Below, piece by piece: positions 6,048 to 64,000 of a stretch of 64,000 nucleotides of DNA (position 1 is its first letter; each line of letters starts with the position of its first letter). The stretch is from Marsupella aquatica (taxonomy: Eukaryota; Plantae; Marchantiophyta). The notes beneath the pieces are model-generated. The model was not told where the DNA came from. It saw only the letters and a program-made list of their open reading frames with translations, and made no database searches. The translations under genes and the position numbers were made by a program. The stretch spans positions 11,858,359 through 11,922,358 of the forward strand of contig OZ316893.1 of NCBI GenBank assembly GCA_973895155.1, read 5' to 3'.

Positions 6048-10480
<4,433 letters not shown>

Positions 10481-10511
10481 CTTGGCAAAGCTCAGCTTAG
10501 CTCCCTTTTTT

Positions 10512-10535
10512 TCTCTCTTTCTCTCTCTCTCTCTC
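10512..10535 (-). repeat. (GA)n microsatellite in the GFAT 5' UTR
   Basis: (CT)n run on the + strand about 30 nt upstream of the GFAT ATG. Confidence 0.8.
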
Positions 10536-11975
10536 GTCAGCAATTGTTGTTCGGTTGATGAGACTGATCCCTCACGAGACCAAAACACTGAGATGGGATC
10601 GTGCTCCACCAACAATAATTTCCGCAACTCCAATTCCCGTCCAGATGCGCGATTCGCGCTCGTTCTGCTGTTCTTGCCGACCCCGTCTCTAAACCCCTCT
10701 CATCGTCGTCGTCAAAGCACCATAATGCCTCTCGAAGTCATCATTCATACCTCGAAATTCCTCCGCTTTCATCATTCCTACCTCACAGTTCCTCCGCCTT
10801 CATCATTCATACCTCACAATTCCTTCGCCTTCATCTGCCCCTCCTGAAATCGGTCCTTCGATGCCTCGAGCTTCAGTTCACACCTCTCTACCCCGCTCTC
10901 TTACAACGTGCACTGGACTGTATACACCCGTACTGTAAAGGGCACTCCCACAATTCCCATTCGCACCCAACATTCGGCCCGACGAATGAATGTCGGGGTA
11001 GCCACGCACTGCCAGCACCTGCCGCACCAGATTGTCCGTCCGATCTCCATCGAACGGCTCTTGGTTCCTTCGTTCTCACAGCCTGCAGAGTACCCGATAT
11101 TGACACTCCCGCACCCACCATTTTAACGAACGAATGACTTCGTCCATTCTGCCTGCCACCCGATATTGGCCGGTTCAGTACTGTAGTAGGCGCCAAGGCC
11201 GCCGCACGCATTGGCCGTGTGACGTAGCGGACGTACCTTAGAGTACAGTACGACGCTGCATCCTGGAGGGCTTACTAGGTTCGGGGCCTTTGGATTCGAA
11301 TCATCGACAGTAGAGGATGGTTTAAACTTTAAAGACGGAAGGTCAGACTGTCAGATGACCATCAGTCACCTTCCTAGAAGGGCCTCCGACGGGCCGCACC
11401 TAAACGGTACCCGTACCGCAATTCTGTAGCGTGGCGAATCTCGCACGATTTACATCTGTAAGGGAGTACGTCTGAGGGGATCGACGGCCAGGAGAACCCC
11501 CAAGACCCGGAGGTGGTGTAGAGGGCGGCGAGTCCGGGTCGCATGGAGTCCGTGTAGGCTGGGGGCCTGACCTGCTGCCCAGTGGCTCGACCGAGTCCAA
11601 CGGGTCCGGTGCATGAACAGAAACCTCTCGCTCTAAGTGCACACTTCGTAACTGCAAAAATAGTAAAATTGCAAAGTGTTCTTTCCTTCCTTTTATTTCC
11701 CGAGCAGCTTAGGAGCTTTTTTTGCAAGTTACCATAATTGTCAGTGGGAGGAATTCTGCACTTACCCATGAGTGTGCATAAACCCGCACCTTTATATTTG
11801 TCATTCACTCATACAGTGTAGCCCTTTTACACTTACAAAAATTGTAAAAAGAAATTTCATGCATAGAAATTGGAAACGCAAGATAGCCTACCACTGCAAT
11901 TATGTTAGCTTGCTTTTTTTGCAAGCTACCTTTACAAGTGGCCATAATTGCACAAACACCTTTCTAAGATTTAGA

Positions 11976-33789: not shown

Positions 33790-34600
33790 ATCTCTTAATC
33801 GAGAAAGGGTTTCCAATGAGCCTCAGATTGACAAATTTTGTCAAGTTCCAAATGAGTTTTTGAATTTCTTTGCCTTTCCAATGAGTGTGAGTATAAGAAA
33901 TATTGATCATGAGTCCATGAATTCTTTTAGCTTTCCAACATTGAGTCCGACATTAACAAATTTTACGTCAGATTTTGTCACGATACTAAAGAGATCATGA
34001 GGTTTTCAATCTCTCTAGCTTTCTAATGTGTGACATTGAGATTATTTGTCAAGAATTAGAGAGATCATGAGTATCTGAATTTCTCTAGCTTTCCAATGAA
34101 CCTAACTCGGGGGTCTCACTTCCACAAAAATGGCATATCACGTGCGACGAAGGATAGGGTCATTTTATTGGTTCTAAGGGAAGACTTAAGAATTTTTGTA
34201 GAAGAACAATAGGGTCTTTTAAATTCAATTTTGAGACTTATAAGAACATTAGGGTCTTTTTAATCCAAATTTTAGAATATTCCAAGAATATTCCAACTTT
34301 ATAGGGGTTAAAAATAAAAAAAATTCTTACATTTTAGGGGGTCCGAGGCCTAAAAACGTCGCAGGCGATGGGGAGGTCCCCATATAGTGAGACCCCCCAG
34401 GAACCTAACATTGATAGATTTTGTCAAGTACTAAGGAAATGATGAGTTTTTAATTTTACTTTAGCTTTCCAATGAGTGTGACATTGAGAGAATTTATCAA
34501 GACAATATTAAAGAGGTCACTAGTTTCTAAATCTTGATCTTGAGTTTTCCAATGAATCAAACATTGACAATTTTATCAAGTACTAAGGAGATTGATTATT
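33790..34600. repeat. Degenerate tandem array (~60-70 bp unit, TAGCTTTCCAATGAG...ACATTGA), interrupted by a MITE
   Basis: Motif repeated roughly ten times; a reverse-complement array lies at ~42935-43150. Confidence 0.65.
34106..34400. mobile_element. 295-bp MITE with 15-bp TIRs and 8-bp TSD (copy 1)
   Basis: TIRs CTCGGGGGTCTCACT / AGTGAGACCCCCCAG; perfect TSD GAACCTAA (34098-34105 and 34401-34408). Near-identical to 55181-55477. Confidence 0.93.
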
Positions 34601-36180: not shown

Positions 36181-37266
36181 CAGGAACTTTTGAAAATTCC
36201 CAACACTAAATTAACATCATCTGAACATATTTTTTCATAATTAAAAATGCAAAGACATGATCTAAATTATGAATGTGGCTTTGACTTACTCAACTTAGGT
36301 AAAGTTGGCTTAGGGTTAGGTTGGCATAACATAAAGTGGGGTATGATCCCCTTACTAGCTCTTCTTCTCTCAAGCAAATTTCAACTCATTTGGTAACTAA
36401 GTAAGGTGAAGTCTGTTTGAATCTTAAATCTTTTAACTCATTACTGGGAAATTTGTTTGAGCTCAAATGTCTAGAGTCCACATACCCTAGTTTTCTCTCT
36501 GTCTTTGAACATTTTCAACCCATTTGATTGAGTAACAAAAAATGATAAATCCCACTGATTGGATTGTTTTGGCCCTAACTTAAGCTTTAGTTGGCTTAGG
36601 AAAGTTGGCTTAGGGTAACAGTGGGCTAATTTCAAGTATAGGTACAATTTTATTTTGAATTCACAAATTTGACCTCAGTTTGAGCTCAAACTTTAAGTAC
36701 ATATTAGAGTTTTCCGTAAAAGCAGCCCATGAAAAGACGGGCCACTCACCCTGTAATTCTAAAAGGCTAGTTACCGTGAAAGTAGAGCATGAACAGACTT
36801 TTTAGTCAAAACTCAAGGTGAAGTCCTACAGCTAATAATGATTTCTAGGTCAACTCTCGACTCTCGTGAGCATTTTTGACATCCCTCACACTTTCCACAG
36901 TGTGAGCATTTCTAACGTTGTACGCATGGTCCAGGCTGATCCTCTGTTGCGCTCTTGCTTTGCTTTATGGTGGTTCACTACTGTAGCTCTTCCAAATATT
37001 CTTTGTGTTATTCTTCTTGTTGCTACGGTAGTTGTAAGATCTAATTGATAATTGATGCTGCATGCTCCCACTTCCCTATGTACACTATTGCTCTGGCAGA
37101 CCTGCCTAAACGCCTGCGTCCACGCACTTGAGTTCCTTTGGTCCCATGTACTTGAGTTCCTTTTTTTCTGTACGCTTGTTTTGTCAGCTCTTTCAGAAAA
37201 AAAACAGTTTTTTAGTTAAGATCTCTGTTTGTATTTGCTGTTTGATCCCTCTTTGCTACAGTTGAA

Positions 37267-38403
37267 ATGGAGAATAATGGGTCCAACAGTCCACCCATCC
37301 CTAGTACTACGGATGATTCTCAGACATCTGATACTTCTCTTGAATTGAGTGATGACGAAGATTTATTAGACGACATGGAGGATGACTGGATGACTATGTT
37401 CCATGCTGCCTCAGTGACTGTAAACAGTAGAGATTTTTTCAATTTATATGAGTTGCAAGCAACTCAGGGAATGTATACAGATCCTGCAGCAGGGGTAAAA
37501 GATGTATTAAGGAGCATGAAGAATTTTCCAGGACGATTCAAAGAGCTCACCAATTTCACTATAGATGAGTGGGGAGACCTCTGTTGTCGTGTACTTCCAA
37601 TAATTGCATCGCATGCTAGGTCCACCGGAGAAGCTCACAATAGTAGAGGTCGTCCTTCAAAATTATCTCCAGAAGAACGACTGCTCAATTTTGTACTCTA
37701 CATGAAACATGATAACACCATTGTTCATGATAGTCATCAATGGAACTGGTCGCGATCTTCTCTGTGTGATGATGCATATTTTGTTGCATCATGTTTGAAT
37801 GTGGCACTCTCGGACAAGATTCGATGGCCTTCAGCTCAGGAGCGAATGGAGCTATCTACCCACAACCCTGATTGGCCAGGTTGCATTGGCATTATTGATG
37901 GCACTCTTGTGAAGATTCGAAGACCATTTAACAATGAGAATCATAGTGATTGGTTCCAAGGCAGGAAGAAGATGTACTGTCTGAATAATACAGTAATCGT
38001 TGATCATCATGGTTTGTTCATTTATCTGGACTCTGGTTACCCAGGTTCATATCATGACATAAACATTTTGAAACAGACTGAGCTTTTCAAGAATTGGAGA
38101 GAGTATTTTCAGCACACTGATGGGTACCATGAGTATTTGTTGGGCGATCCTGGATATGTTCGAGCAGACAGCTTCATCATGCATAGGTTTGGTGGGACAG
38201 AAGATACTCAAGGCATGAGTGCTGCCACTGTGAGAGCATGGAACAAAATGCATGTTGGATACAGAATCAAAGTTGAGTGGGGAATTGGGGGAATGAAAAG
38301 AAAATGGCATCGACTGATGAAAGGATATGATCTGCGGAAGTACAAATTCAAAGAATTCTTTCAAGCTGCAGCTCTACTGACAAATTTCCTCCAACGAAAA
38401 TGA
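37267..38403 (+). CDS. Harbinger/HARBI1-like DDE transposase (DDE_Tnp_4 type), 378 aa
   Basis: CIGIIDGT, YPGSYHD, YLLGDPGY and RIKVEWGIGGMKRKW motifs give the D-D-E triad; an HTH-like region lies upstream. The final TGA may be slightly premature. Confidence 0.9.
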   Translation: MENNGSNSPPIPSTTDDSQTSDTSLELSDDEDLLDDMEDDWMTMFHAASVTVNSRDFFNLYELQATQGMYTDPAAGVKDVLRSMKNFPGRFKELTNFTIDEWGDLCCRVLPIIASHARSTGEAHNSRGRPSKLSPEERLLNFVLYMKHDNTIVHDSHQWNWSRSSLCDDAYFVASCLNVALSDKIRWPSAQERMELSTHNPDWPGCIGIIDGTLVKIRRPFNNENHSDWFQGRKKMYCLNNTVIVDHHGLFIYLDSGYPGSYHDINILKQTELFKNWREYFQHTDGYHEYLLGDPGYVRADSFIMHRFGGTEDTQGMSAATVRAWNKMHVGYRIKVEWGIGGMKRKWHRLMKGYDLRKYKFKEFFQAAALLTNFLQRK

Positions 38404-38690: not shown

Positions 38691-39639
38691 CTACAGCTTC
38701 AAAATTAGCTTTACTTGCTCTTTGAAGGCCTCCTCTGATATGCATCCCAGGTCCCTGGCCTTTTTCAGGTTGTTGATTTTGATCTTTTCCTGGAGTAAGC
38801 TTTCAGTGACAAGCTTTGCATCCATCAACAAATCTCGCATCTTCCTTCCTTCCTTTATCTCACCAACCTACTTGCCAAAGAAGCAGCTTGTGAATTCAAT
38901 GAATGAGCCTTGGTAGGCTTTACCTTGGTTGCAGCTCCACATGAAGATATAGTCTCACTTGCAAGAATAGGGGTTATTGGGCTTTTGGGGTTGATACATT
39001 CAGTATCTCCAGAGCCTATTGGAGTAGTGATAGGAGTCACAGTTGGTGCAGTGTTGATTGTAGTGTTCCCTGCCATCAGTTCTTTTCTTGTCCCATGCAA
39101 ATTTCGTGAAGCATGTCTGTCAGTTTGCATGATCTTTTCCATCACAGTTGCACTCTGCATTCTGACTCTCTCATTGATTTCATCATTAGAATTACCAGTC
39201 TGGATGTCTTTCAATGTTTCTCTCAAACGGTCCTTCAATGATTCTTGAACAAAGATTGAATTTGGAAACTCAGTTTGTAAAATGCATACAGAGGGGCCCA
39301 AACTTTACCTGGGGTCAATTGGCTTGATTTCTTGCCTTTCTTTGCAAGCTTGCTACTGTAATTTTCAAAGAATACATTATAGGCTGAAGCAAGCAATGCA
39401 AGGTGGACAGAGTGGACAGTTTCTCTCTTTTTTCCATTGGGAGCCTTGGTTGTGCCCTTGCGTTTACCCTTCCCTGCCTGCAATTGGACCTTTGAAGTAG
39501 CTTTACTGGATTTCAAAGGCAACTTTGAGCGTACAGCAGCAATTGGATTGACTGCTTCACAATCACTGTCCCCACCAGCACCATCTCCATTGGACTCATC
39601 TGCTTCAGATGGTTCTATGTCTGAGCCTGATGGATTCAA
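38691..39639 (-). pseudogene. Second (probable DNA-binding) ORF of the Harbinger-type element, with two apparent frameshifts
   Basis: Three coding-like segments in different frames: ...KVWAPLYAFYK, FPNSIFVQESLKDRLRETLK..., and ...MRDLLMDAKLVTESLLQEKIKINNLKKARDLGCISEEAFKEQVKLILKL* (stop 38691-38693). The position opposite the transposase is typical. The start codon is uncertain. Confidence 0.6.
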
Positions 39640-39824
39640 AGCATGCCACAGATGATGTAAGAGACAGCATGCCTAAATGTAGATTTCATTTTAAAGAGAT
39701 TCGAAATGAGCCAAATACCTGTACTCTTGTCTAAGCACATCCAGGGTTCCAGGACAGGGGATGCATCAATGAAATCCATGTCGAAGCTGAATGTCAATCC
39801 TCGACCTCTCACTCTCCTTGCAGC

Positions 39825-49235: not shown

Positions 49236-50959
49236 GTTTCACTTAGATAACATTGCTAAAGGGTATCCAAGGCATGTTCAGTATATTTTGATTCAAATTT
49301 ATATCATTTCAAAAGCTTCTACAATGATACCAAGATGTGACAAGACAATGAAAGGATAGGATTGCATGGCCCTCCCTTTGACATTTACTCTTCCCTGGCC
49401 TTGTGGATGCCCTTGCATGCATGCATGATCTGCTCCTCACCCCTAGCTCAAAGTCACTTTGTACCCATGGTGCATGTTATAGGCAATGCATATTGTACTT
49501 TTTGGTAAGGAGTCGGGTATGGAACATTGAAGGAGATTCCATTTTGACCAAAATTTGAGGTTTGGAGAAACATATTGACCAAAATTTGAGGTTTGGGGCA
49601 TGGAGTGAGTAAAGAAGAATTCATGGACATGAGAAAAGTTTTGGCTCTTTGTTCTCAAGAAGAGATTTTTCAAATTTTGGGTAAATGTTACCTTTTCTTT
49701 CCAAATGTTTTTCATGAAGGGAAGAAAATGGGGAGGGGATGGAGACCGTGGGAGGGAGAGCCGGAGGGCTTGGTGTGTGTCTGTGTGTGGGGGTACCAAA
49801 AAGTACCCCCAATGTTCTTAACTCTTTTGCACTTGCATCTTTCAATGTACAACGCACAAGTATTGAGGTAGTGAGTTAATGTAATAGATGAGCTCAACGT
49901 CCTTTTGTAGCTGCCGATCAAAGATCTGAGCGGTAACATGCAACACACATTGATATTCAAGTTCTTTGAATGCAACCATGCATAAACGGAACAGTTTTGG
50001 ATGGCTTTGCACAATGCTTTTCATGGACGCGCTTGAATTAATTGGACATGTACTGTAAGTCCTCGGATAGAGTGCGGCTTGTCCCCAACCTTCTTCTGGG
50101 CAAAGTGGATTGGAAGATAAGGAAGTGCATATATAGCATTCAGCTCTGGAGGATCTGAAATGGAAAATATAACAAGATCTACACCGGATAGTAGGCCTGT
50201 GTGCCTTTGGAGGGAACTGGTAGACAAAAACCATAATTTAATAGTGCGCTGCATTTGTGGCTTGTGATCCAGTGCAATTTGTTGTTGCTGGCAAACTGCA
50301 ACAAGAATTTGCAACCAGACTAGGAGTCTTTACACGAGCTGCCAAACTTGATCATGGGTGGAGTGGTGGCCAGTACAATGTCGAGGTTCTTGGCTGACTT
50401 TGAACCCAGCAGTGATGTTGTGAGGAACAACTTCTCTCATCTGGAGAATGCATCAAATCTTCAAATGAATTTGCCGAGAAGGCAGGCTATCAGTCAGCCA
50501 TTCAAGACAAAGCTCGTAGCTGGGTACTAAGTATCTGCTCCTTTTTTGAGGGAATCAATGAAGTGACTTTAGGCACATAAGGTGGTCAATCAGAACTTTC
50601 CAAAATTATGGGAAATGGGTGTGATGCCTTGCCAGGATCACGAAGTAATAACTAAGCCTAAAAAAATGGCTAAATAAGGATAGATAGAGAGTATAAGGTA
50701 ACAATAAAGACCGATGCCGATTTCTACGTGTAGATGATAAAGGAAAGGATCCAATGGTTGAGATCCAGCGGGATTGGAGTTATGACCTAATCCAAGCTTG
50801 ATCACAAGGACCCCTAAGTGGCGGCTTCGGAGTAAGGTGACCAATACTCTGCCATTTTGCATTCTCGTGTACACGGTTTCGACATTGAGGAGCGACTGTC
50901 AGTCAAGTACGTGCATGTGGTGGATTGGGAGATTGCGCAAGTTCTTGGCATTCGGTGGA

Positions 50960-52141
50960 ATGAACACGGTGAATCAGGCAGGGAAGTTTTGGGGCTGTTT
51001 GCTTGAAGAAGCAAGGCAGCTGATACCTACGTATGAAGACGTTGAGCCAGAGCGCGCAGCCAGAGAACGAGCGGAGCTTGCGCGATTGTGGGGAATTCAC
51101 AAAACGGCATCCATAGATACGGAGGAGGTGTTGGAAAAGTTCTCGTGGACACCCACCAGTGCGGAGCTTGACGAATTGCTGATTCGGGAGAATAAGGTCG
51201 TGGGGATTAAAGAGGCAATCAAGAACGCAGGGCGACCACTTTGGGAATTGAAGGGTCACACTGCAAAGTGGACGAAGGAAGCTATTCTTGGGGAGTATTC
51301 AGGCGCTGAAGAGATGAAGCGCAAGGGAAGTTCGGCATCCGCAACTCCAGCAAAGCGAACTAGGTCAGAGAGACCAATCAAGATGGAATCCGGGCCAGTT
51401 AGAGATCGGGCCATAGAGGATAAAACCATGACAAGGTGGGCGGACAGGTTACCTGCCGATTTACAATTATAGTTTGCAAGAGATGAGGATGAGGTCTTTA
51501 GTGCCGTCCAGGATAATAAATATGCAAGATATATGAATGACACTGGGTTGGAGGGCTTTGTCAGGTTGTCTTGGAGGATGGTAGACATACCGGATGAGGA
51601 TCTGTTGGACTTCGTGGGATGCTGGGAGGCTTCTTCCAACACGACGCTGTTGTATGGAAAGGTGTTCGAACTAACACCTGCGCTTATCGAAGCCGTCTTC
51701 GCTTTACCAGCAGGAAGGAAGACTAAGGTGGAGCAGAGGAAGACTTTGCCCGATGACCAGTTCAAGTCATTTCCAGGGCCTTCCATTAAGAATGGGTATT
51801 TCAAGAATCAATGTACCAACCCGCATATAGGGCAGCTGATTGATTTCCTGAGAGTCACGTTGCATTGTACCTTGCCGAGAACAGAAATCGGCAAAGCCCA
51901 GGTATTTTTGGTGGAGAATATCGATGCAAGCCGAGACTACAACGGCTATCTCTTAATGCAGTTGAAGAAGGCATTAAATGAAGAGAAGCAGAGCATTGGG
52001 GAGGGAGCGGTATCCAGACTAGGGTACCATCTGCAATTACTTTGCCGATATGCAAGAAGCCAGTCTTTTACACCGGTGTTGCCTATACAGGAGCGGATGC
52101 CGATCACTGCACCACTTGAGGAGGTGGAGGAGGACAAGGAG
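50960..52141 (+). pseudogene. TE-derived ORF (plant mobile domain / retrotransposon accessory-protein-like), with an internal stop and truncated by a CACTA insertion
   Basis: ORFs 50798-51472 and 51533-52147 are in the same frame, separated by one TAG (51470-51472). The segment LLDFVGCW...GKVFELTPALIEAVFALP resembles the PMD-like 'G..+.+T...+..++.LP' signature. The apparent stop at 52145-52147 is supplied by the CACTA terminus. Confidence 0.5.
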
Positions 52142-52489
52142 CACTAGAAGAAAATAGGGCCCTTTATGACCAATTACCCAATGACGGAGATGAATAAATG
52201 ACCAAAATTTCTAATGACACAAAAAGAATGATAGGAGAATGACTGTCCACAATGACCAATAGACTAAAATGACAAAATGTTAACTTTTGCGTCATTTTGT
52301 ATAATGTTTGTAATGACTGATGCGACCAAAATGACCCAATTTCCCTAAATGGTCAATTTAGACACATGTCTTAAATGACACAATTAATAATAACAATGAT
52401 AAATCAGTGTTTAGCACCATTATAGTCACTCTGGACAATGATTGAAATAACCAAAAATATATTTGGGTCATTTTGGACAACGGTGTTAA

Positions 52490-52920
52490 ATGACAAAATA
52501 TAGGGTCAATCTGAAAATGAGAATATATCAGTGTTTACAACAACATACCGTCATTATGGACTTCTCTCATAATGACTAACTCTAGGGTCAATCTTGAAAT
52601 TAGGACATATCAGTGTTTACACGAACATACCGTCATTATGGACTTCTCTCTTAAATGACTAACTCTAGGGTCAATCTTGAAATTAGGACATATCAGTATT
52701 TACAAGAACATACCGTCATTATGGACTTCTCTCATAAATGACTAACTCCAAAGTCAATCTTGAAATTAGGATATATCAGTGTTTACAACAACATACTATC
52801 ATTATGGACTTGTCATATAAATGACTAAATATAGGGTCAATCTAAAAATCACGATATATCAATGTTTACAATAACATACAGTCATTATGGACTTATTGCA
52901 TAAATGACTACTTATAGAGT
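52490..52920. repeat. CACTA subterminal tandem array, 82-83 bp unit, ~5 copies
   Basis: ATATCAGTGTTTAC...GTCATTATGGACTT unit starts near 52525, 52607, 52690, 52773 and 52856. Confidence 0.9.
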
Positions 52921-53009
52921 CATTAAAGAACCCAAGAGATATGAAGATTAAAATACTCAATAGTCATTCCAGACACCGGTCATAATTGTAGAGTCATTGA
53001 TATAGTTGA

Positions 53010-54229
53010 TAACCCTTCCACTAAATGCGGGACACAATATATACTCATCATTGTCCTCCCACTGGTTGCGGCATTAGCAATTTGAACATATGTCTTGCAT
53101 TTACTTAAGGCATGATGCACCTAGCTTTGGGGAAATCACTCTCAAGTCATACACCTTTGGAGTGATTTGGCATAAGTGTTACCATATATAGATGCATACT
53201 ATCGTATCCAAAGGCAAATGAAGCCTTTTTGTCTCTCCAAGAAGTAGGGCAATACCAATGGAAGGTTGTCATCCTTTGTTGTAATTGTGTCATGTTTGTG
53301 CCGGTGTTTGGATGGGGAATATTTTAATTTGCAAATGAATAGTGATGGGGCATTCAAGGAGCTAGTGTAGTCTTTATTGGGTCATTTCTAAAAACATTTG
53401 CATCACAAATACCAATGACTACAAGTAGGGTCATTAAATTTGTCATATGGACTGTCATATAAGTCAAGTGACTGGACTTGTGGTCATTTGTGTGGTCCCT
53501 CATGCAATCATTAAACACAAGCACTAATGACCAGTTTGGGGCTAGGGGCTTGAGGTGGGCCCTAGAGTGCCATGGGGCCCCACATAGAGGTGAGAACCCC
53601 TCCACTAGGTGTGGGACACTATACTCATCATTGTCCAACCACTAGTTGCGACATAAACACTTTGGACACATGTTTTTGCGTTTACTTAAGGTACGATGCA
53701 CCTTTGGGGAAATCACTCCCAAGTTGTACGACTTTGGAGTGATTTGCCAAAAGTGTCATCATGCATGCATACCATCACATCCAAAGGCAAATAAAACTTG
53801 TTTTTGGGTTCTCCAAGAGGTAGTGCTGCACCAATGGAATGGGCAGGGGAGTCGTGCTTCTCAGTATGGTGTGGGTGCGGGTTTAGGGAAGAGGAATATT
53901 CCAACCTTACAAGGAATCTAAAGTTGGTTCTCTTTGGAGGTACTAGGGCCTTTATTGGGTCATATGTGAGCAATGGCCCGTCATAAATGCCAATTACTAC
54001 AAGAAGGGTCATTAAAATGGTCACATTGGATGTCATATAAGCCAAATGACTTGATTTATTGTCATTTGAGGGGTCCCTCATGCAGTCATTAAGGAAAAGC
54101 ACAAATGACCAGTTTGGGGCTAGGGGCCCCTAGAGTGCCATGGGGCCCTACATAGAGGTGAGAATCCCTCCACTAGGTGTGGGACACTATACTCATCATT
54201 GTCCATCCACTAGTTGCGACATAAACACT
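53010..54229. repeat. Internal CACTA tandem repeat, ~570-590 bp unit; the array resumes at 62655-63530 after the Sola insertion
   Basis: CC.TCCACTA..TG.GGGACAC.ATACTCATCATTGTCC at ~53015, ~53600 and ~54168. Sequence at 62655 continues the unit (CACTTTGGA.ACATGTTTTTG.GTTTACTTAAGG) exactly where 54229 breaks off. Confidence 0.88.
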
Positions 54230-54550
54230 AACAAGAAGCCTTAAGGGATGAGTCCAAAGCCTTATTTCTCTTTTCAAAATCTTCATGATATTAAAAAGTG
54301 TATACCAAAAAACCACCAAAAAATGGTATGTATTTTCCAAACTAGACTCAAGAGAATTTTACCACCAAAATCTAAGCATATCTTATATGATATTCTCACA
54401 ATTGTATAAACCTTGAAATATGCACTTTATAAAAGTAATCAAAATCAAACTCATCGATCAGAGTTTAAGTCAAACTCAAAGTTTTACAAAATATAACCCA
54501 ACTTAAGCCCAAGTGGTTTCAAATGCTACGAGTCCCTCTATTTATCTAGT

Positions 54551-57500
54551 CTAATCCAAAGGGACCGCTTCCCCTTCCTCGGTTCCGGAAGTCCCTATCG
54601 TCAATTCTGGAACAATTGTGGCATCGTCAACCACGCTATCCTCTCTGGCCTGAGGAATGTCTTCCTCACTCTCCTCATCCATCTCCCCCTGTCCGTCTTC
54701 CTCTTCAATGTTATCTGCAAGGTTAAGAATCCTCCCTTTCAACACACTGCTCTGTCGCTCGTCAATCTCAATGGCAACGCAATGTCTCCCCATGGCCAAG
54801 GAGGAGGTTGTCCCAGTCCCTGATCCTAAACAAATATCCAAAACCCAGTCTCCAACCTGACTAAAATGACTCACTTCCCAATCTAACAATGCACGTGGTT
54901 TCTGATAAACATTCACTGCCTTGTTATCCCCGTTGTGTTTCAGCTTCTTAGTCACAGCTGCGCATACAACCACATTGTTCCTTGATTCATTTGTGTCAAA
55001 ATTGAAGTGCTCCAATGACCGTTTACCATCCTGGCTGTGAAAGCCAATTGTAAAGCACTCAAAGTTGCTGTTCAATCTTGGTCCACCAGCATTCTTCACA
55101 TTATCCTTAACCCTGAAAAGTCACAAAAAGTCAAGGAGTTATTTAAACTGAGAAACATGGTTCATGAAATCATGAATAACCTCGGGGGTTTCACTTCCAC
55201 AAAAATGGCATATCACGTGCGACGAAGGATAGGGTCATTTTATTGGTTCTAAGGGAAGACTTAAGAATTTTTGTAGAAGAACAATAGGGTCTTTTAAATT
55301 CAATTTTGAGACTTATAAGAACATTAGGGTCCTTTTAATCCAATTTTTAGAATATTCCAAGAATATTCCAACTTTATAGGGGTTAATAAATAAATTTTTT
55401 TTCTTACATTTTAGGGGGTCTGAGGCCTAAAAACGTCGCAGGCGATGGGGAGGTCCCCATATAGTGAGACCCCTGAGTGAATAACTAATAGTTGTTTTTT
55501 TCAAAAACAAATATTTCTTACCACACACAATTCTGGAACCCTCCATTACACTCCGCTTTCAAAACGGTCTTGATGGCCTCATATTGGTCAAGGCTGTGGT
55601 GAATGATAATACGCCACAACTTTGCAGTAGTAGCCACCTTGAACGATTGGACCATTTTTGTGATCTCCTCAGTTCCCCATCCAATAGTGTCTTCATGAAG
55701 ACATCCAGGCAATGCAAACCCGTAGGGAATATCCACTAAAGCTAATGTGTAAGCCCGACCCGGAACCACCTCATGTAATCGCTGAGCATCATGAGTAAAA
55801 ATATCATAGTGCACATCACCAAACTCTGGATGCTCAAACGAATTTGGATGAAGTTCCCCCTCTTGGGTTTGCCGACTAGAAGTCTTCATGGATAGCCAAT
55901 TTTGGGCTTGCACAATATGCGCATTGAATTTGTCCGGGAATGACTTGAGATCTTTGCCTTCCTCATCTCCCTTCTTTTTCCGGGAGGTGGTATCTTTCTA
56001 CAAAAAGGAACTGTAGAATTAGAAACAAGGATTCCAAATATTAAATGAATTCAAACAATCATTCGAAGAAAGGTGACAGAATCTTACCCATGTCTGGAAA
56101 ACAGGTACAAAATTCTTAAGCACATTGTCTGTGCAATGCTCAGGGTACTTGGTTTTACAACTTGACCAACTCTCCTCGTGTAGACACGTGAGGAAGGCCT
56201 TCTGCACCTGCATCTGAAATTTGTGTCGAGTAAATTCGTGACCCATTTCCTGTAAAGAGAGTTCTTTAGTAAGAACTCTCTGTAACACTGGGCAAATCAT
56301 ATCAGGATCTTTCAAGGCCTGCATGTGTCTCCACTCTATTAATTTCATGTCCTCATAAGGCAATTTGGCATCTCCAGACTTAGAGACTTTCTTCTTGCCT
56401 TTGTCTCCTTTTTGACCTTTGATCTCACACATCTCCCACTTGTCACAAATCTGCCTCACAAATGACCACACAGGATCTTGTCGGAATGCCAACTGAAATA
56501 GGTTATCATTGGCATTAAGAACCTCAGCATCCTTTCGTACACCCCAATCCTTGAGATTGATTTCAGTAGCACACTCTTTCTTGAAATCCTGGTTGGACGA
56601 CAATCCATTCTCAACAAATCTCATGTGAATATAATTTACTCTCTGGATTGTCGTCATCTGTTGTCGAAATTCAGAATCAATATTGTGACTCCACGCAAGG
56701 TTTCTTGCCTCTTGCACACTCAATCCCGCAAATATCCAAGATTGCACTCTCCGAAATGCCTTGTTGTTAGGAAACTGAAGAGCAAGGTCTGCTTTGGCAC
56801 AGGCTGAATGGTTGCCCCCAATCACATAATAATGGTAATCAGCTTTCCTTGAAAAATCAAAGTCTTGCCTAGTAGCACACTCCTTCGGATCCACCAAGAG
56901 GACAAACGGAGCTGCAAGTGGACTGGCACCTACAGTCTTCATCCGCAAGGTCAATTGGGTCAAGAAATATGGTTGGATGTGTCGGACCTGGTAAATGGGC
57001 AAGCCCACAGCCTTCTCTCTCACTGGAGGGTAAAGTTGACCAATGTCAACGGTCACGGTCTCCTCTTGAACACCACATCTTCCCAGAATCTCCTCCTGGT
57101 ACAATACCCGTGCATCCATTGACATTGATTGAGCCTTTTGCTCCAAATGCGTTGGAATTTTCTCCAAAGTCTTCTTTTTTGACTTTGTAGCACAGGGCTC
57201 GGTAGGCTCAGGAGTCATAGCAGGTCGCTTCTTTGAAGAAATGCGAGTTCCAGTCGTACCTTGTGCCGACCCACCAGTCAAAGGCGTTCCCTGGGATGAT
57301 CTGCCAACTTGAGATCCCCCTCCAGATGCTGCTGCTTCCCGGGAGGTTGTAGGCGCTACCACGGTCAAAATATCATCGGGTAAAATGCTAGGCCTCGATC
57401 CAGAAGGAACACCGAAAGCCCCAAATTTGGGTGGACGACTTACTCCCTTCTCTACCGACCTTTTCCGGAGAATCTCTCTTGATTTTCGGATTGCACTCTT

Positions 57501-57917
57501 TAAAGTGCTAGCGTGAAATTCAAACACAAAACCGGAAATCTTTCCCGCGACGTCGTGGTAACGTTCCTCACTCGAAAGAGACTTGACAGTCTCAATGATG
57601 CTATCGATGTCCTCATCGAGATAGCAGGTGGCAGCCGTTCCAGAAAACCTCTCCACATCCACGACAATCAAAGTTGATGTTTCCTTCGTTGTGATCAACA
57701 TGTTCACAACTTCGTCGCCCCGTCGAAATACATCGATGCGGCCGTAATTTACCCACCCTAATGCCCCCGATGGAAGCCCCTCAAATACACACAGCATTAG
57801 GAAGGGCTTCTTCCATGTTTCCGTCCCTAAGGAAATCGTCCAGGATGAGTTGTGGAAGTCCGTCAAAGGATGGCGCGAAAAGATGTCATCCACCAGCTCT
57901 TCCTGCGACATTGTCAT
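54551..57917 (-). CDS. ParB/Srx-like domain + beta-class N6A/N4C DNA methyltransferase fusion, 3 exons (57917-56088, 55997-55522, 55112-54551), 955 aa
   Basis: GT-AG junctions join the ORFs in frame (...FQTW|KDTTS...; ...NCV-W-VKDN...). MTase motifs occur in beta order: LALVDIPYG (motif IV, DPPY-like), CVWVKDN, YQKP (motif X), VLDICLGSGT (motif I), GRHCVAIEID. ParB-like core: QVRHIQP...PFVLLVD...YYVIGGNHS...LAWSHN. No stops in the spliced frame. Confidence 0.85.
55181..55477. mobile_element. 297-bp MITE (copy 2) inserted in intron 2 of the methyltransferase gene
   Basis: TIRs CTCGGGGGTTTCACT / AGTGAGACCCCTGAG; perfect 8-bp TSD TGAATAAC (55173-55180 and 55478-55485). Near-identical to 34106-34400. 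Confidence 0.93.
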
Positions 57918-58696
57918 GTTTTTGCCTGATCTTCAAACCTGAGAACATACCACAAAATCAGTCCACTTCAACCCCAACCTGCGAGACAAAGTGCCACAAA
58001 ACCAAGGAATGTGCCAACAAATGGCTACTAAAACCGTGTCCTTACGGATCTAACAACGCTCTCGGCCACCCCAGGACTCCTATCATGAATTCATGAAGGG
58101 AGTCTCCCTCTCGCTCCGACCTTCATGAATTCATGAAGGGAGTCTCCTCTCTCTTTGCTTGTACACCTCGGTGATGCAGAAGGGTATTTAAAATAGGGTT
58201 CGGAGGGGGGTGACGTGAAGAAATCACCCAGGGCCTAAATTACTACCTAAAACAGGGTCGAAATGAAGTGCGACCGCGACAACTCGCGACACGTTGCCGA
58301 TGAGTGCTGAAAATGGCACGAAATTGGATAGCGAGATTGTTTTTCACTCTTTTACAAAGGAAATCCAAATGACATTGAGTGAAAATGAATGGGCTGCCCC
58401 GTGTTCCTTGGTTATACATACTAATCACGGATCAGGCGCGACTTAGTAAAATTAACCCAGAATCATGATAAATCAATGTTTTTGGGCCAATTATTCATGA
58501 ATATTTCGGGGTATTAACGGGAAAAAGCTTGCAAATTTCATGAATATTTGATATTTTTGAAGTTAAAAAGTCCCAACAATCCGTGAAAAACTATAAATAG
58601 GCTCGTTTATTCATGACTCTTGGTCATTATTTTGAGAACATTTGTTAGATTTTACTGATTTTCTGAGTTTCTTGTCAATTTGCACTAGTTTTTCCA
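57918..58696. promoter_or_regulatory. Divergent intergenic/promoter region of the Sola element with duplicated palindrome and TATA-like boxes
   Basis: Lies between head-to-head genes. TCATGAATTCATGAAGGGAGTCTCC occurs twice (58083, 58123). CTATAAATAG at ~58591 is upstream of the transposase; TATTTAAAA at ~58185 reads as TTTTAAATA towards the MTase gene. Confidence 0.5.
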
Positions 58697-58833
58697 ATGG
58701 CGGCGTGTTACGAATCAGATGATTATTCAGATGGAGTTTCTGATGATGTTTCATTGCCGGATGGCCCCTGCACAGTGGTTGGCCCAGATATCCCTGGAAT
58801 AACTACTATTTTAGATATGCCACCCCCACCCCT

Positions 58834-61800
58834 ATGAGCAAGTTAAAACGTAGTCCTTTACGACTTGCAATTAGTGGGAAGAAATCATTGGTCGATGGTA
58901 AAGAGAGGTCAGGGAGCTCCTCTGACTCCTTGGAGAGTATTGGTCCCCCTGGACGTCAAGTTGTATCTCCTTTGTCACCAACAAAGGACAAATTGGGGAG
59001 TAATCTGGAAGGTTCAATGCCTATTTGGATGTCTGGGAAACGGTCTCATGAATTCATGAAGACTGGATTTGGAAAGACGAAGAAGGCACTAAGTGGGGAA
59101 AATGACAGAGATTTTTGCAGTCTGCAAAGTGTTCAGCGGCTGAAGCAAATGCCAAAAAGTAAAACCTTTGGTAAGCCAACGTCGGAAACATTTCACAGGG
59201 GGATGAGGGAAGAAACTAGACGACCAGTGTTATTGAAAAGTATTCCAGAAAAGAATTCTAATGTGCGTTCCTCAGTTTTACCTAGGAGTCATGGTGTTGG
59301 GGCAGGGAGCGGATCAAGTCACGGAAACTCAAACAGGGAAACCAACCTGGTGGAGAGGGACCCTAGGAAAATATTGAAAGGGTCCCTACACGGTAATGGA
59401 GGGATTTCTGAAATACGCCCAGGTATTCCAAGGGTGCATAGAGTGAAGGAAGAGCCTCCATCTCCGAAGGCTGCAGGTCTGGAATCTAGGCATGTTCAGA
59501 AGCAAATGTTGGTGACCATTTCATCATCGAATGAAAGCGAGTCTTCGGAGAGTGGGGAGGATGATGATGTTCCGGTGGCATCTAGTCGTTACAAACGTAC
59601 GAGCAACGCCACTTTGTGTGAAACAAAGTTGAAAGAGGAGGATATCAAGAAAACAAATAGTAAGTACTGTTGTCAGAGTCATTGTCTCCTAAGTCTATCT
59701 CCAAAAGAAATTCGTGAGGCGCGTTCTAAATTTTTGAGGCAGAAATCTCAGGATCGATCTTTATCTTTGCAGTGGCTTATAAAGCGAGACGGAAATGAAG
59801 GAGGGAGGCAGACTATATCTTACACGTTTGGTCAAAAGAGTATTTGTCGGAAAGCTTTCAAGCTTATATTTTGCGTTGGCAATCATAGATTAAATAGAAT
59901 TTTGAAATTAGACAACCAAGACTTAGGATATTCTAAACCAGTTGGACGCCCTCCATCTGTTAAAAGATTAGTCTTGGTCAGTTGGCTTAGGTCGTTTTTT
60001 GAGACACGCGTGGAAACATTGCCAAATAAAGAAGTTTCACATTTACCGGATAATTATTCAAAGCTGGAGGTATGGAAGATCTACGACTCCAACTATGCCA
60101 AGATTGATGAATCTTCAAAAATATCCTATCGACAATTCTTGAAAGTTTGGGTTCAAGAATTTGGTCATGTGAAGATTCCTCCAGTCAATCGATTCAGTGC
60201 TTGCGCGGATTGCGAGGAGTTCAAATCAATTCGGGACAAAGCTGTCTCGGAGACCGAAAAGAGTAAGTTGCTTACAAGTTTGACAAGTTTTTGTTTCAAG
60301 AATATGGCTTAACACATGATTTCTAATTTTTTTTTAAGAAACTAACAAGTTGTTTTTCCAGGGCGAGGGGAAATTATGTTACAAAAACATAGAGACCAAC
60401 AATCCAAAGAACGTGAGAAACTCGCGAAGCATCGTAAGAAATGTTTTTCAAATTCTGATAAATATTTGGGAGTTGTCATTGATGGGATGGATCAGAAGAA
60501 GACAAGGTTGCCTCATTGGCCGCGGCCCCCAAAATCGGTGGACGAAACATGTTTGATCCAAATGCACATTGTCGGATGCCTGGTTTTCAATGGTGCACTA
60601 TTTTCAAGAGTGTTTCTTAATTATCCTGTATTGCATAATGATGGAAACTTGACAGTCACAATCCTGCAAAGGGTGTTTCACGAATGGGAAGAAAAGCCTG
60701 GTGGCTTGCCGCCTGTTCTCTATCTTCAACTTGATAATACCAGTAGAGAAAATAAAAATAACTTACTCTTTGCCTATCTTCATATGTTGATTCGAAGAAA
60801 GGTTTTTCGGAAAATCAAACTAGGATTCTTGTTGGTTGGACACACACACGACCAAATAGATCAAATGTTCAGTCGATTTTCTAAACGACTAGCAAGGTTT
60901 AAGGCATTCACATACGAAAGCCTATGTGATATTATTTGTGAATCATATCAACCCCAACCAAATATCACTCTTTTAAAGGAAACATATGATTTCCGTCAAT
61001 ATGCCTTCTCAGATCCACCTTTAGTCATTGAAAGGATTCGAAATGTTACCTTCCACCACCAGTACAAATTTGCATTTGACAAGTTGGAAAATCAAGTTCC
61101 AACCCAATGGGGGAAGAAGTTTTCCACGGACTCAACTTGGAAACCTGACGGAGGCGTGAAATTTTTGAGGGAAGAGGAGCCAGAAAAGGTGATGGGTTGT
61201 GCTCCCGGATTACCCCTTTTCAAAAAGGGGGATAAGAACGTTACAAGGACTCAACCAAATATGTCTAGTTCTTCAAGAATGACTTTGAAGGAGATGGATG
61301 ATTCGTTAAATGAGATTCAAAAGGGAATACTTGCAGTTGAAACTTTATTCTCAGAAGAGGAAGTGAACTGGTGGAGAATGTTTTTTGAAGAGCAACGGGA
61401 ATTGAATAAATCTTTGCTCCTTGATCAAAGACCATTGATTTTCCCTTTTCAATGGCCACGCTCCCAAAGGGAGATTGCTGTTGCTGCTGAAGTTCCCAGA
61501 GTCCTTGTCAATGAAGAGGAAATTGAAGAGAGAGTATACGGACCTACCAGAGATATATACGTGGGTCCTTATCGGAATCAAGGAAAGATAGATGCAGAGA
61601 AGGAGAATATGGAAGGAGACTTTTCGGATCTTGAAGTCAACACTTATATTTCTGTTGCTGGAGAAGAATCGGAAACATTTTGGGTGGCCAAGGTGGAAAG
61701 AATTGACCAGCGCGACGAGTTCAACATTCCAAAAATGATTTATGTTTTATGGCATGCTCCAAAAACCGGGTCAGATCCTTGGAAAGCCAAGTACTTACCA

Positions 61801-62094
61801 GAAGTCTTAAACTACGAAAAGAAGAAAAGTGGTCGTGGGAAAGGAACTTTGAAACCAATATGGTTTCACCAAGAGCTTGATTTATCTTCAACGACTGTTT
61901 TTGCTTACAACTTCATGTTGACAAAATCTGATACATTGTACAAAAAGACAGTAGATCGAATCAAAATCCGATTGACTGAATTTTTGGCAGAAGAGAAAGA
62001 GCAAGAACAAGAGAATAGATCAACTACAACCCCGCTAGGAGATAAATCTAGGGATATTTCGTTTCAAGAATTGAGGACTTCTGGATCTGAGTAA
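58834..62094 (+). CDS. Sola1-like DDD transposase, 2 exons (58834-60262, 60362-62094), ~1053 aa; original start probably 58697 with a 1-bp frameshift
   Basis: 99-bp intron A|GTAAGT...ACTAAC...TTCCAG| keeps frame (ETEK-R-RGEIMLQKH). Cys motifs CCQSHC, ICRKAF and CADC. Catalytic-type motifs VIDGMDQ, YLQLDNTSRENKN and VGHTHDQIDQMFS. Located inside TIRs with a 4-bp TSD. Confidence 0.85.
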
Positions 62095-63830
62095 TGAAAA
62101 GTAGTTATTGTTTGTGACATTACCATTGAAAAACATGGATAACTTGAAAATTTACAAATTTTCAAAATGCCTTTACCACTTATTCATGAATTCATGGTTA
62201 AAGTTTCTTGAGAAATTTGTAGTTTAATATTATCTTAGTGGGTTGTGTTTCAATTCAATTAGATGGTGTCATTTCTATTCTCCTTGTCTTCTTTTCACAA
62301 TAATGTGTATCAGGTTAAGTTGTAGTAATTTATTTTCTGGTTTTTAAATGACAATGGCTTTTGGAGGTGATTTAGTTGTTGTTTCAAAAGACACCTCGTG
62401 TAATTGTGAGACCATTGTAGATAATAGTGTTGTATTTGAGATCATTTATTGGTGGAATGTAACTTCAGATGAATTTGGTCATTTTTAGGTGTCAAAACAT
62501 AGCTAGTTTATGTCATATTTTGTTCGCTCCATATTTTTGCTCTAAAATAGGTGCTAATTTTTGCACTTTTTTTGACTTTTTCGTTGTTTTTCTGATTTTT
62601 TGGCTAGAGTTCCTAAAGTATGGGCTTGTTACTCATCATTTAAGGCTTCTTGTTCACTTTGGAGACATGTTTTTGTGTTTACTTAAGGCATGATGCACCT
62701 TTGGAGTGATTTGCCAAAAGTGTCACCATGCATGCATACCATCACATTCGAAGGCAAATAAAAGTCATTTTTTGGTTCTCCAAGAGGTAGTGCTGCACCA
62801 ATGGAATGGGCAGGGGAGTTGTGCTTCTCAGTATGGTGTGGGTGCGGGTTTAGGGAAGAGGAATATTCCAACCTTGCAAGGAATCTAAAGTTGGCTCTCT
62901 TTGGAGGTACTAGGGCATGGTTGTGGTGCTTCCTTGTATGGTGTGTGTGAGTGGGTTTAGGGGTTTGCAAGGAATTTAGAGCTGGATCTCTTTTGAGGTC
63001 TAAGGACTTCATTGTGTCATTTGTGAACAATGGAGTGTCATAAATGCCAATTACTACAAATAGGGTCATTGAAACGGTCATTATATAGAATAGGTCAAAT
63101 GAGTGGACTTGTGGTCATTACATTGGTCCCTTGTGGAGTCATTTAGGAGAAGCTCAAATGATCAGTTTTGGGCTAGGGGCTAGAGGTGGGCCCTAGAGTG
63201 CCATGTGGCACTACATAGCGTTGGGAACCTATTTAGTGGGTGCAGGACACTCTACATACTATTCTTCATCCACTACTTGTGGCATAAACACTTTGGGATA
63301 TGGGGATTCTATTTCTAAACCCTAAACTTTTGCTTCATTGGGCCATTTGTGAACAACTCTAGGTCATAAATGCCAAATAATGACCTCCTAGAATGTGATT
63401 GTGATTATGATATGGGAGTACCAAATCACCCAAAATGGGGTCATTAGAGGATTCCCTCATGATGTCATTGAGGAAAGAGGTTATAATGACCAAACTGGGG
63501 CTAGGAGTAGAGGTGGGCCCTAGGGGATAACAAGGTTGTTGCAGGACAACAATGGAAAGGGTCTCTTTCTTCATTTCATTTGGGTTGATTGGTAATGGCT
63601 TATAAAATGTTTATGGCCCCTCCACACATATAGTTGTCGTATGGTGGAGTAAGCCTAAGTAACCTTATATGTTAGGGGTTCCAAACTTTTGTGTTACCCA
63701 ACAACTAGTCCCAAGTCATGGTACTCATCAAAAGGAGTATGGGACAAGAAACTTATCAACCGTTTGTACCACTACTTGCAGCACATGACTTCATTTTGGA
63801 GCCAATCATGCTTTTGACTGTCATAAGTGT

Positions 63831-63883
63831 CAATGACATGTATCTAAGTCATATCCACCAAATGACTTAGATACATGTCATTG
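63831..63883. repeat. Perfect 22-bp inverted repeat (9-nt loop) in the CACTA right subterminal region
   Basis: CAATGACATGTATCTAAGTCAT (63831-63852) and ATGACTTAGATACATGTCATTG (63862-63883). Confidence 0.9.
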
Positions 63884-64000
63884 GCACTTTAAGTCATATC
63901 CACCAAATGACACCAACAAGAGTCATTAGATACATGTGTTGGTGTCATTGAGGATCAGACACCAACAAAATAGGGCCTTAAATAGTATCATACAATTCTA

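Follow-up and report, generated by a model that had tools for sequence, protein, structure and literature searches.

Marsupella aquatica contig OZ316893.1 carries a complete DNA transposon of 8425 bp, located at positions 54230 to 62654 of the window analyzed here (the whole stretch of 64,000 nt; all coordinates count from its first letter). Sequence comparisons identify this element as a member of a multi-copy, Sola-like family with two genes, in which the transposase is accompanied by a conserved ParB-like amino-methyltransferase (MTase) and a candidate operator. The reading that we favour, with moderate confidence, is that this fusion of a ParB/Noc-like module with an MTase would bind palindromes of the element as a dimer, write N6-methyladenine (6mA) on nearby element DNA and regulate the promoter shared by both genes.

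The terminal inverted repeats (TIRs; 54230-54253 on the plus strand and 62631-62654 on the minus strand) are identical in the first 15 of 15 bases and in 22 of 24 bases overall (84% over 32 bases), and the element is flanked on both sides by a CACT target site duplication (TSD; 54226-54229 and 62655-62658). Excision of the element and one CACT yields an empty site, in which 116 of 122 bases are identical to the adjoining repeat unit from 53582. An earlier reading of this DNA, made from the letters alone (the sequence-only reading), had described a complete 8.4-kb element with 24-bp TIRs, a CACT TSD, a visible empty site and a head-to-head pair of spliced genes. All of this was borne out, the genes encoding a DUF7869 transposase and a beta-class MTase of 955 amino acids (aa); the splicing of both was deduced from homologues. 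The insertion target (about 53000-54229 and 62655-63300) is a degenerate repeat with a unit of approximately 570-580 bp, which reaches a contig depth in the thousands in read run X1 and is either a satellite or a non-autonomous element. No Rfam match was found across positions 52000-64000 of the window.

The MTase gene is located on the minus strand and consists of three exons (57917-56088, 55997-55522 and 55112-54551), separated by GT-AG introns of 90 nt (55998-56087) and 409 nt (55113-55521; 104 nt without an inserted miniature inverted-repeat transposable element (MITE)). The open reading frame (ORF) contains no internal stop, and the motifs DIPY, WVKDN, QKP and DICLGSGT are found at residues 699, 769, 839 and 861, respectively. 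Exon 1 encodes an N-terminal domain (aa ~1-155), a low-complexity linker, the ParB/Noc-like part (aa ~285-412) and a helical part extending to aa ~570-610; residues 1-155 are conserved among homologues and have no family match. Motif and profile evidence places the catalytic motif DIPY in exon 2. The Pfam match and the splice model assign to exon 3 the remaining MTase domain with QKP and the S-adenosylmethionine (SAM)-binding motif DICLGSGT, followed by an acidic tail and the stop codon. GT-AG introns are present at identical codons and in identical phases in the relatives L001 (101 and 99 nt) and L002 (89 and 99 nt), and P0061, the NCBI gene model from Calypogeia, reads through both junctions.

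Exon 3 matches the Pfam family N6_N4_Mtase (PF01555) with 35.2 bits at a cut-off of 26.7, and the MTase family proposed by the sequence-only reading thereby passed its check. The motif order is that of the beta class, with the catalytic DIPY (699) before the SAM-binding DICLGSGT (861), and the profile alignment spans both motifs in CcrM and DpnA; the fold is assigned from sequence profiles. A profile built from 25 sequences matched CcrM (1.7e-19), DpnA (3e-17), RsrI (1.7e-15) and MboIIA (5e-15), while PvuII (7.6e-8) and the rotifer N4CMT (4e-7) scored below these adenine enzymes. Two unnamed "Methyltransferase" chains, 8urk and 9c3u, were also among the top matches. Among the 61 matches that cover the catalytic motif, 42 contain D/N-x-P-aromatic, and in 19 the motif is absent or odd; the canonical DPPY or DPPW is present in three and SPPY in none. 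The D-x-P-Y motif and the nearest solved enzymes, CcrM, DpnA and RsrI, point to 6mA rather than N4-methylcytosine (4mC) as the product.

The middle of the MTase gene product is predicted to fold like bacterial ParB/Noc. A structural model of residues 255-610, calculated from 14 sequences, reached a predicted local distance difference test (pLDDT) value of 78. In a Foldseek search with this model, all ten matches at E<=0.001 were ParB or Noc (342 matches at E<=10), and structures of Noc and ParB bound to their own sites were among the matches. A second structural aligner gave Z 9.5 and a root-mean-square deviation (rmsd) of 2.2 over 94 residues against the N-terminal domain of Caulobacter ParB. 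The helical part that follows is predicted to be DNA-binding. At the sequence level, no match for the ParB-like part was found in Pfam, PHROG or NCBIfam. ParB/Noc-like modules are expected to read a short palindrome. As a side observation, the nearest language-model clusters for residues 270-610 (56088-57110, minus strand) are DUF3723 (0.96), which we regard as a lead only. In fungal Starships, DUF3723 is conserved as cargo (10.1101/2021.12.13.472469; this and all other papers are cited for the parts of their text that were available), and the likeness hints at ParB-like genes recurring in eukaryotic mobile elements.

A short palindrome, TCATG-N4-CATGA, is repeated within the element. Among the 2080 six-mers, TCATGA ranks second in the element and first in L001. 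CATG-N4-CATG occurs five times in the element, six times in L001 (one of them unrelated) and three times in L002, counts that were each reached by none of 500 shuffles; the remaining 55.6 kb of the window contain four. Two of the sites (58083 and 58123; together 58083-58136) form a pair 40 bp apart, located 166 bp upstream of the MTase start in the divergent promoter region shared by both genes (57918-58696). L001 and L002 likewise have a pair upstream of their MTase genes, with spacings of 40 and 42 bp. The same promoter region contains four more single TCATGA half-sites (58463, 58495, 58538 and 58611). Further palindromes are located in intron 2 (55162-55175), as is the case in L001 and L002, and in transposase exon 1 (59046-59059; two in the same region of L001), and the motif scan found one with a single mismatch downstream of the transposase (62184-62197). 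Families differ in the centre of the palindrome (AATT/AAAT; ATAT/ATTT; CTAG) and not in its arms. CATG alone is not enriched, with 4.3 per kb in the element versus 5.5 outside, which gives no indication of a plain CATG target. A function as a pure RNA hairpin was ranked lower because the arms are fixed while synonymous sites are saturated.

The transposase gene is located on the plus strand, with exon 1 at 58697-60262, a single GT-AG intron of 99 nt assigned by the splice model (60263-60361) and exon 2 at 60362-62094. The frame of 1054 aa is open from an ATG at 58834. The protein matches DUF7869 in Pfam (E 3e-51), with the core of the domain and three acidic motifs encoded by exon 2. An alignment of 93 rows was made from the 92 of 120 listed matches that cover the core; IDGMD is kept in 83 of its rows, QLDN in 89 and GHTHxxID in 86. 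These three motifs we take to be the acidic triad of Sola, a group of DNA transposons reportedly described by Bao et al. in 2009. The region of residues about 900-1010 (61530-61950, plus strand) has no family match; it is predicted to be strand-rich, contains two tryptophan positions conserved among homologues and is perhaps a small beta-barrel.

Sola elements are described as encoding a transposase with three conserved aspartates (DDD), with a 4-bp TSD, TIRs of 11-1124 bp and a length of mostly 2-9 kb, and they have been found in moss (PMC10741241). The element resembles them in its three conserved Asp motifs, its 4-bp TSD, its short TIRs of 24 bp, its length of 8425 bp and its occurrence in a bryophyte. 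The target preference of Sola1 is AWWT (PMC3845634), a hallmark that the CACT of this single insertion does not show, although the hallmark is a preference. Of the label Sola1 given by the sequence-only reading, the Sola part agrees with the DDD motifs and the 4-bp TSD, and the assignment to Sola1 does not agree with the CACT. The statement of that reading that Sola elements are usually transposase-only was too strong, since published Sola2 elements carry Fanzor genes (PMC3627910), which makes a second gene possible in this group; here, in difference to known Sola elements, the second gene encodes a ParB-like methyltransferase. This comparison is one with published descriptions of Sola. The available part of the supplement of an RNase H class survey contains no Sola1 or Sola2 entry (PMC3985635).

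To determine how widely the two genes occur together, contigs from four of the seven listed read runs were compared with the element, and contigs from four with a single-copy stretch. In run X1, which may be the source of the window itself, five long contigs that together cover MTase and transposase parts have the same depth (484-577) with 0-5 differences each, and the single-copy stretch has a depth of 13.3. From these depths, both genes would be present in about 36-43 near-identical copies, a rough value since contig depth gives no true copy number; the estimate from run X2 is about 19-29 copies. The data further suggest that the family amplified recently. Beyond these copies, the metagenome contig L001 has the same head-to-head layout, with an MTase that is 68-73% identical and a transposase start in which 15 of 21 residues are identical to those of the window (frame of ATG 58697); the L001 copy contains one in-frame stop. 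In L002, the upstream part is too short to reach a transposase. Riccia sorocarpa has an MTase homologue, R1sor_010796, and a transposase with 42% identity, R1sor_010795, which bear adjacent locus tags and are recorded on contigs of equal length. P0003 and P0220 are each found on a Logan contig of 8829 bases, which is likely one and the same contig. A one-off capture of the MTase gene, raised by the sequence-only reading as an outcome that would speak against it, is ruled out by the near-identical copies and the relatives carrying both genes. As judged from these comparisons, the pairing of transposase and MTase is old.

The MTase is under purifying selection. Comparison of the window with L001 and L002 gave dN values of 0.24-0.29 and a dS of 2.3 or saturated for the ParB, helical and MTase parts, corresponding to a dN/dS of ~0.1 or lower and not to the value near 1 that the earlier note had named as refuting. 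Within the family, the listed variants of the MTase gene comprise 8 synonymous changes and 12 non-synonymous ones, compared with 1 and 6, respectively, for the transposase (27 of 40 rows shown of 698); many of them are private to the window copy, and the counts are no evidence of selection.

Calypogeia fissa, a liverwort, has the nearest named homologues, at 61% and 66% identity. The Calypogeia protein has 410 cluster representatives at E<=0.001, of which 150 are listed; the 20 that were looked up include four from Chara braunii, one from Ginkgo and one from Riccia sorocarpa. Several of the MTase relatives carry the ParB-like part in the same chain, and the Chara and Riccia proteins are labelled in UniRef as N-4/N-6 methylase domain proteins. 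A distant and broken ParB-MTase homologue with 37% identity lies at 2700-5400 of contig L003 among remnants of long interspersed nuclear elements (LINEs) and long terminal repeat (LTR) elements; L003 showed no transposase match and no enrichment of the palindrome. Scans of viral contigs and prokaryotic genomes, which see close relatives only, found no relative, and a tblastn search of phages with P0061 gave no match. Two more distant family members are 23-40% identical to phage MTases over parts of their length, which is too weak for naming a donor. Acquisition from prokaryotes was likely ancient.

The copy present in the window is decaying: it carries a frameshift in the transposase, an inserted MITE and mutations of the type caused by 5-methylcytosine (5mC). 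The copy that the sequence-only reading called complete is not an undamaged one: the transposase frame is broken, and intron 2 holds the MITE. The conserved transposase start, ATG 58697, is one base out of frame at a run of C near 58822, downstream of which the in-frame ATG 58834 follows. Contigs of X1, X2 and X5 carry one more C at this position, which restores the frame from ATG 58697, and the frameshift is absent from most X1 copies. The MITE (55181-55477; 297 bp) is a high-copy repeat and a later insertion, flanked by an 8-bp duplication (55173-55180 and 55478-55485); contigs of the same three runs skip 305 bases of intron 2, corresponding to the MITE and the 8-bp duplication. From the length of its TSD, the MITE is presumably hAT-like. 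Its summed contig depth is about 70,000 in X1 compared with 13 for single-copy DNA, and a second copy with 96% identity is located at 34106-34396 of the window. The 8-bp duplication overlaps the end of the intron 2 palindrome.

We infer that the fusion protein is the palindrome binder, that 6mA is its mark and that the palindrome pair is the operator. The ParB/Noc-like module would bind TCATG-N4-CATGA as a dimer, as suggested by the two-fold symmetry of the site, and the fused beta-class MTase would write 6mA on nearby element DNA. Lying between the divergent genes, the palindrome pair would set the balance of both genes and the access of the transposase. In addition, the palindrome would distinguish copies of the element from the DNA of the host, whose lineage is reported to be low in 6mA of its own. 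Autoregulation at a divergent promoter, the closest working parallel, has been described for some restriction-modification MTases that bind their own operator (PMC3874152). The sequence-only reading had proposed a module for self-marking; here, the conserved palindromes and the ParB-like module strengthen the case for self-targeting, and the anti-silencing part of the proposal is weakened by the 5mC-type mutations. A load-and-spread version of the mechanism appears doubtful to us: streptophyte transposons would have imported a ParB/parS-style system, in which a nucleotide-gated ParB-like clamp would load at family-specific palindromes and drag the fused adenine MTase along the element. The resulting private 6mA domain would mark copies as self and gate transposition, in a family extending from Chara via liverworts to Ginkgo.

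Several observations weigh against the favoured reading. The motif was chosen after the window and L001 had been seen, so only L002 is a fresh test; L003 contains a single CATG-N4-CATG, a count reached by 89 of 500 shuffles, and a coding footprint of the palindrome is absent from the 40 long transposase and 11 MTase homologues scanned. The palindrome could also be read by the transposase or by a host factor. The similarity of the helical part to DNA-binding domains is weak (Z 5.3 to Spo0J-parS and Z 4.3 to Noc), and by the aligner's own caveat a Z under 8 may reflect a common structural arrangement. The arginine patch of ParB is GxxRxxA; at this position, GGNHS is found in the window and GG-x-H across the family, and therefore clamping gated by CTP is not a safe assumption. 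At the catalytic motif, DIPY takes the place of the canonical DPPY, and the motif is degenerate in some family members (DIPH, DLPR, DIPS and others). Of the 41 listed transposase homologues of Riccia, neighbours were looked at for one, which lies beside an MTase, and transposase relatives without an MTase may be common. Of the 18 listed private changes of the window copy versus the X1 majority, ten are C-to-T or G-to-A. Eight of these ten are in CG or CHG, contexts that account for 930 of 3484 cytosines (binomial about 7e-4, calculated by hand with the X1 majority letter assumed to be ancestral), and the window copy was therefore likely methylated by the host. Finally, eukaryotic transposon DNA adenine methyltransferases (DAMs) showed no activity in E. 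coli in a recent preprint (bioRxiv 10.64898/2026.05.21.726589).

The protein might bind the same palindromes mainly as an anti-silencing factor that keeps host 5mC and heterochromatin off the element, comparable to the VANC proteins of VANDAL elements or the TET genes of fungal DNA transposons, which we consider unlikely. Sequence-specific anti-silencing by transposon proteins has been published (PMC12973397, PMC12730594), and 6mA accompanies active chromatin and expressed copies of DAM-LTR elements (10.64898/2026.05.21.726589). The recent amplification of the family would fit such a factor, as would a CpG observed/expected ratio of 0.5-0.8 in the genes and promoter of the element compared with 0.1-0.3 in the flanks, but the low values of the flanks may merely reflect an old repeat. 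The C-to-T and G-to-A changes speak against successful protection of the window copy, and host readers of the mark are doubtful since streptophytes are reported to be without abundant 6mA (10.64898/2026.05.21.726589). Alternatively, the MTase domain could be catalytically dead or nearly so and be kept for structure or DNA binding in a protein that acts as a DNA-binding helper or repressor. The non-canonical and variable motif would agree with this, as would the negative heterologous tests of transposon DAMs and the judgement that the MTases of DIRS elements are inactive (PMC4738411). However, the window, L001, L002 and Calypogeia all retain the catalytic Asp, the Pro-Tyr, QKP and the SAM motif D-x-x-x-G-x-G, and conservation of the MTase domain (68%) is on a par with that of the ParB part (69-73%). 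We consider a dead enzyme quite improbable.

There is a small chance that protein and site are unrelated, with the palindrome being a site of the transposase or one for a host factor, and with the MTase acting broadly on host DNA or transposition intermediates without self-recognition. The link between protein and site is our inference. Binding sites of transposases are usually subterminal, but the palindromes are internal (promoter, intron and coding region), and a short palindrome is what a ParB/Noc-like module would be expected to read. Non-specific MTases associated with ParB do occur in packaging loci of phages (PMC4738411). We regard it as very improbable that the enzyme writes 4mC and that Marchantia DN4MT1 or plant 4mC enzymes related to it arose from such elements, a link which the sequence-only reading had suggested and which is not supported. 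The Pfam family and the beta order are shared with DN4MT1 and N4CMT, and the host is a liverwort. DN4MT1 and N4CMT, however, carry TSPPY (10.1101/2021.02.12.428880) and SPPY (PMC8885841), respectively, instead of the D-x-P-Y found here, and none of the 61 motif-covering matches has SPPY. In the MTase profile, the best adenine enzymes outscore the 4mC enzymes PvuII and N4CMT by 7 to 12 orders of magnitude, and DN4MT1, compared here by description, is described without extra domains in the available text (PMC8885841).

The remainder of the window is plant-like DNA. The depth control was a single-copy host gene (about 6200-10700, minus strand) that is spliced and encodes a SIS domain; from its N-terminal motif we take it to be a glutamine-fructose-6-phosphate aminotransferase gene. 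A LINE remnant with a zf-RVT domain is located at 600-2326 (plus strand), and a Harbinger-type transposase ORF at 37246-38403 (plus strand; DDE_Tnp_4, E 3.7e-24), with a possible partner ORF at 39235-39672 (minus strand). An 83-bp unit is repeated five times in tandem at 52487-52910. Beside this array, two consecutive ORFs of 228 and 224 aa, one stop apart (50786-52147, plus strand), have no Pfam match and are perhaps a gene of another transposon.

Transposon-borne methyltransferases are known as a kind, and the combination of a ParB-MTase with a DNA transposon appears to be undescribed. No published report of a ParB-MTase on a cellular DNA transposon was found in literature searches, although Repbase, subscription papers and supplements could hold one. 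The literature used for comparison also included a survey of plant TIR elements (PMC12973397) and work on fungal DNA transposons (PMC5751038). Few adenine methyltransferases and little 6mA have been reported for land plants (PMC4738411; 10.64898/2026.05.21.726589). The enzyme, its candidate site and the host element are all contained within one 8.4-kb unit. With a multi-copy, recently active plant DNA transposon that encodes a conserved amino-MTase and has both a candidate targeting domain and a candidate target, self-methylation of a transposon as a control of its activity becomes testable, as does the origin of any real plant 6mA. If the favoured reading is true, the element would provide a ParB-like sequence reader operating in the nucleus of a eukaryote, and a 6mA writer with natural site targeting.

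Compared with known systems, the enzyme shares with Marchantia DN4MT1 and rotifer N4CMT that it is a prokaryotic-type beta-class amino-methyltransferase in a eukaryote; those are SPPY enzymes for 4mC, encoded by host genes and without a ParB module. DIRS and LTR retrotransposons with a DAM likewise combine a prokaryote-type adenine MTase with a eukaryotic transposon, and self-marking has been proposed for them (10.64898/2026.05.21.726589; PMC4738411). They are retrotransposons with a truncated Dam-like domain and an NPP motif, whereas the element described here is a TIR DNA transposon with a full beta-class domain, encoded by its own spliced gene and fused to a ParB-like part. DAM-LTRs are reported to be absent from streptophytes, and the available text of the preprint does not mention Sola, ParB, N6_N4 or TIR (10.64898/2026.05.21.726589). 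The clades of eukaryotic adenine MTases described by Iyer et al. include DIRS domains and ParB-linked phage sources, and none in the available text is located in a Sola element (PMC4738411).

Among DNA transposons, a methyltransferase gene in or beside the element is also found in two viral Mariners; its partner there is an endonuclease, their MTases are of other classes, and no ParB fusion or internal operator is described for them in the text available (PMC3627910). VANDAL elements with VANC, fungal DNA transposons with TET and retrotransposons with DNMT also direct transposon-encoded epigenetic tools to their own DNA, but these remove, oxidise or write 5mC and belong to other transposon superfamilies (PMC12730594, PMC5890265). 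The element differs from VANDAL, a MuDR element with VANC, in its DUF7869 transposase, its 4-bp TSD and its second protein.

In prokaryotes, ParB is linked to amino-MTases in the ParB-terminase MTase loci of phages. Bacterial ParB and Noc with parS/NBS have the short palindromic site and the succession of ParB N-terminal fold and helical part that is predicted here, and differ in having the arginine patch where GG-x-H is found here; the gene described here is eukaryotic and contains introns. Restriction-modification enzymes of the Ecl18kI/SsoII type make 5mC, their DNA-binding module is a plain helix-turn-helix instead of a ParB-like part, and the partner is a nuclease there and a transposase here. 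In their overall architecture, these systems resemble the element in the divergent gene pair, the MTase with an N-terminal DNA-binding module, here a predicted one, and the operator located between the genes, here a candidate (PMC3874152).

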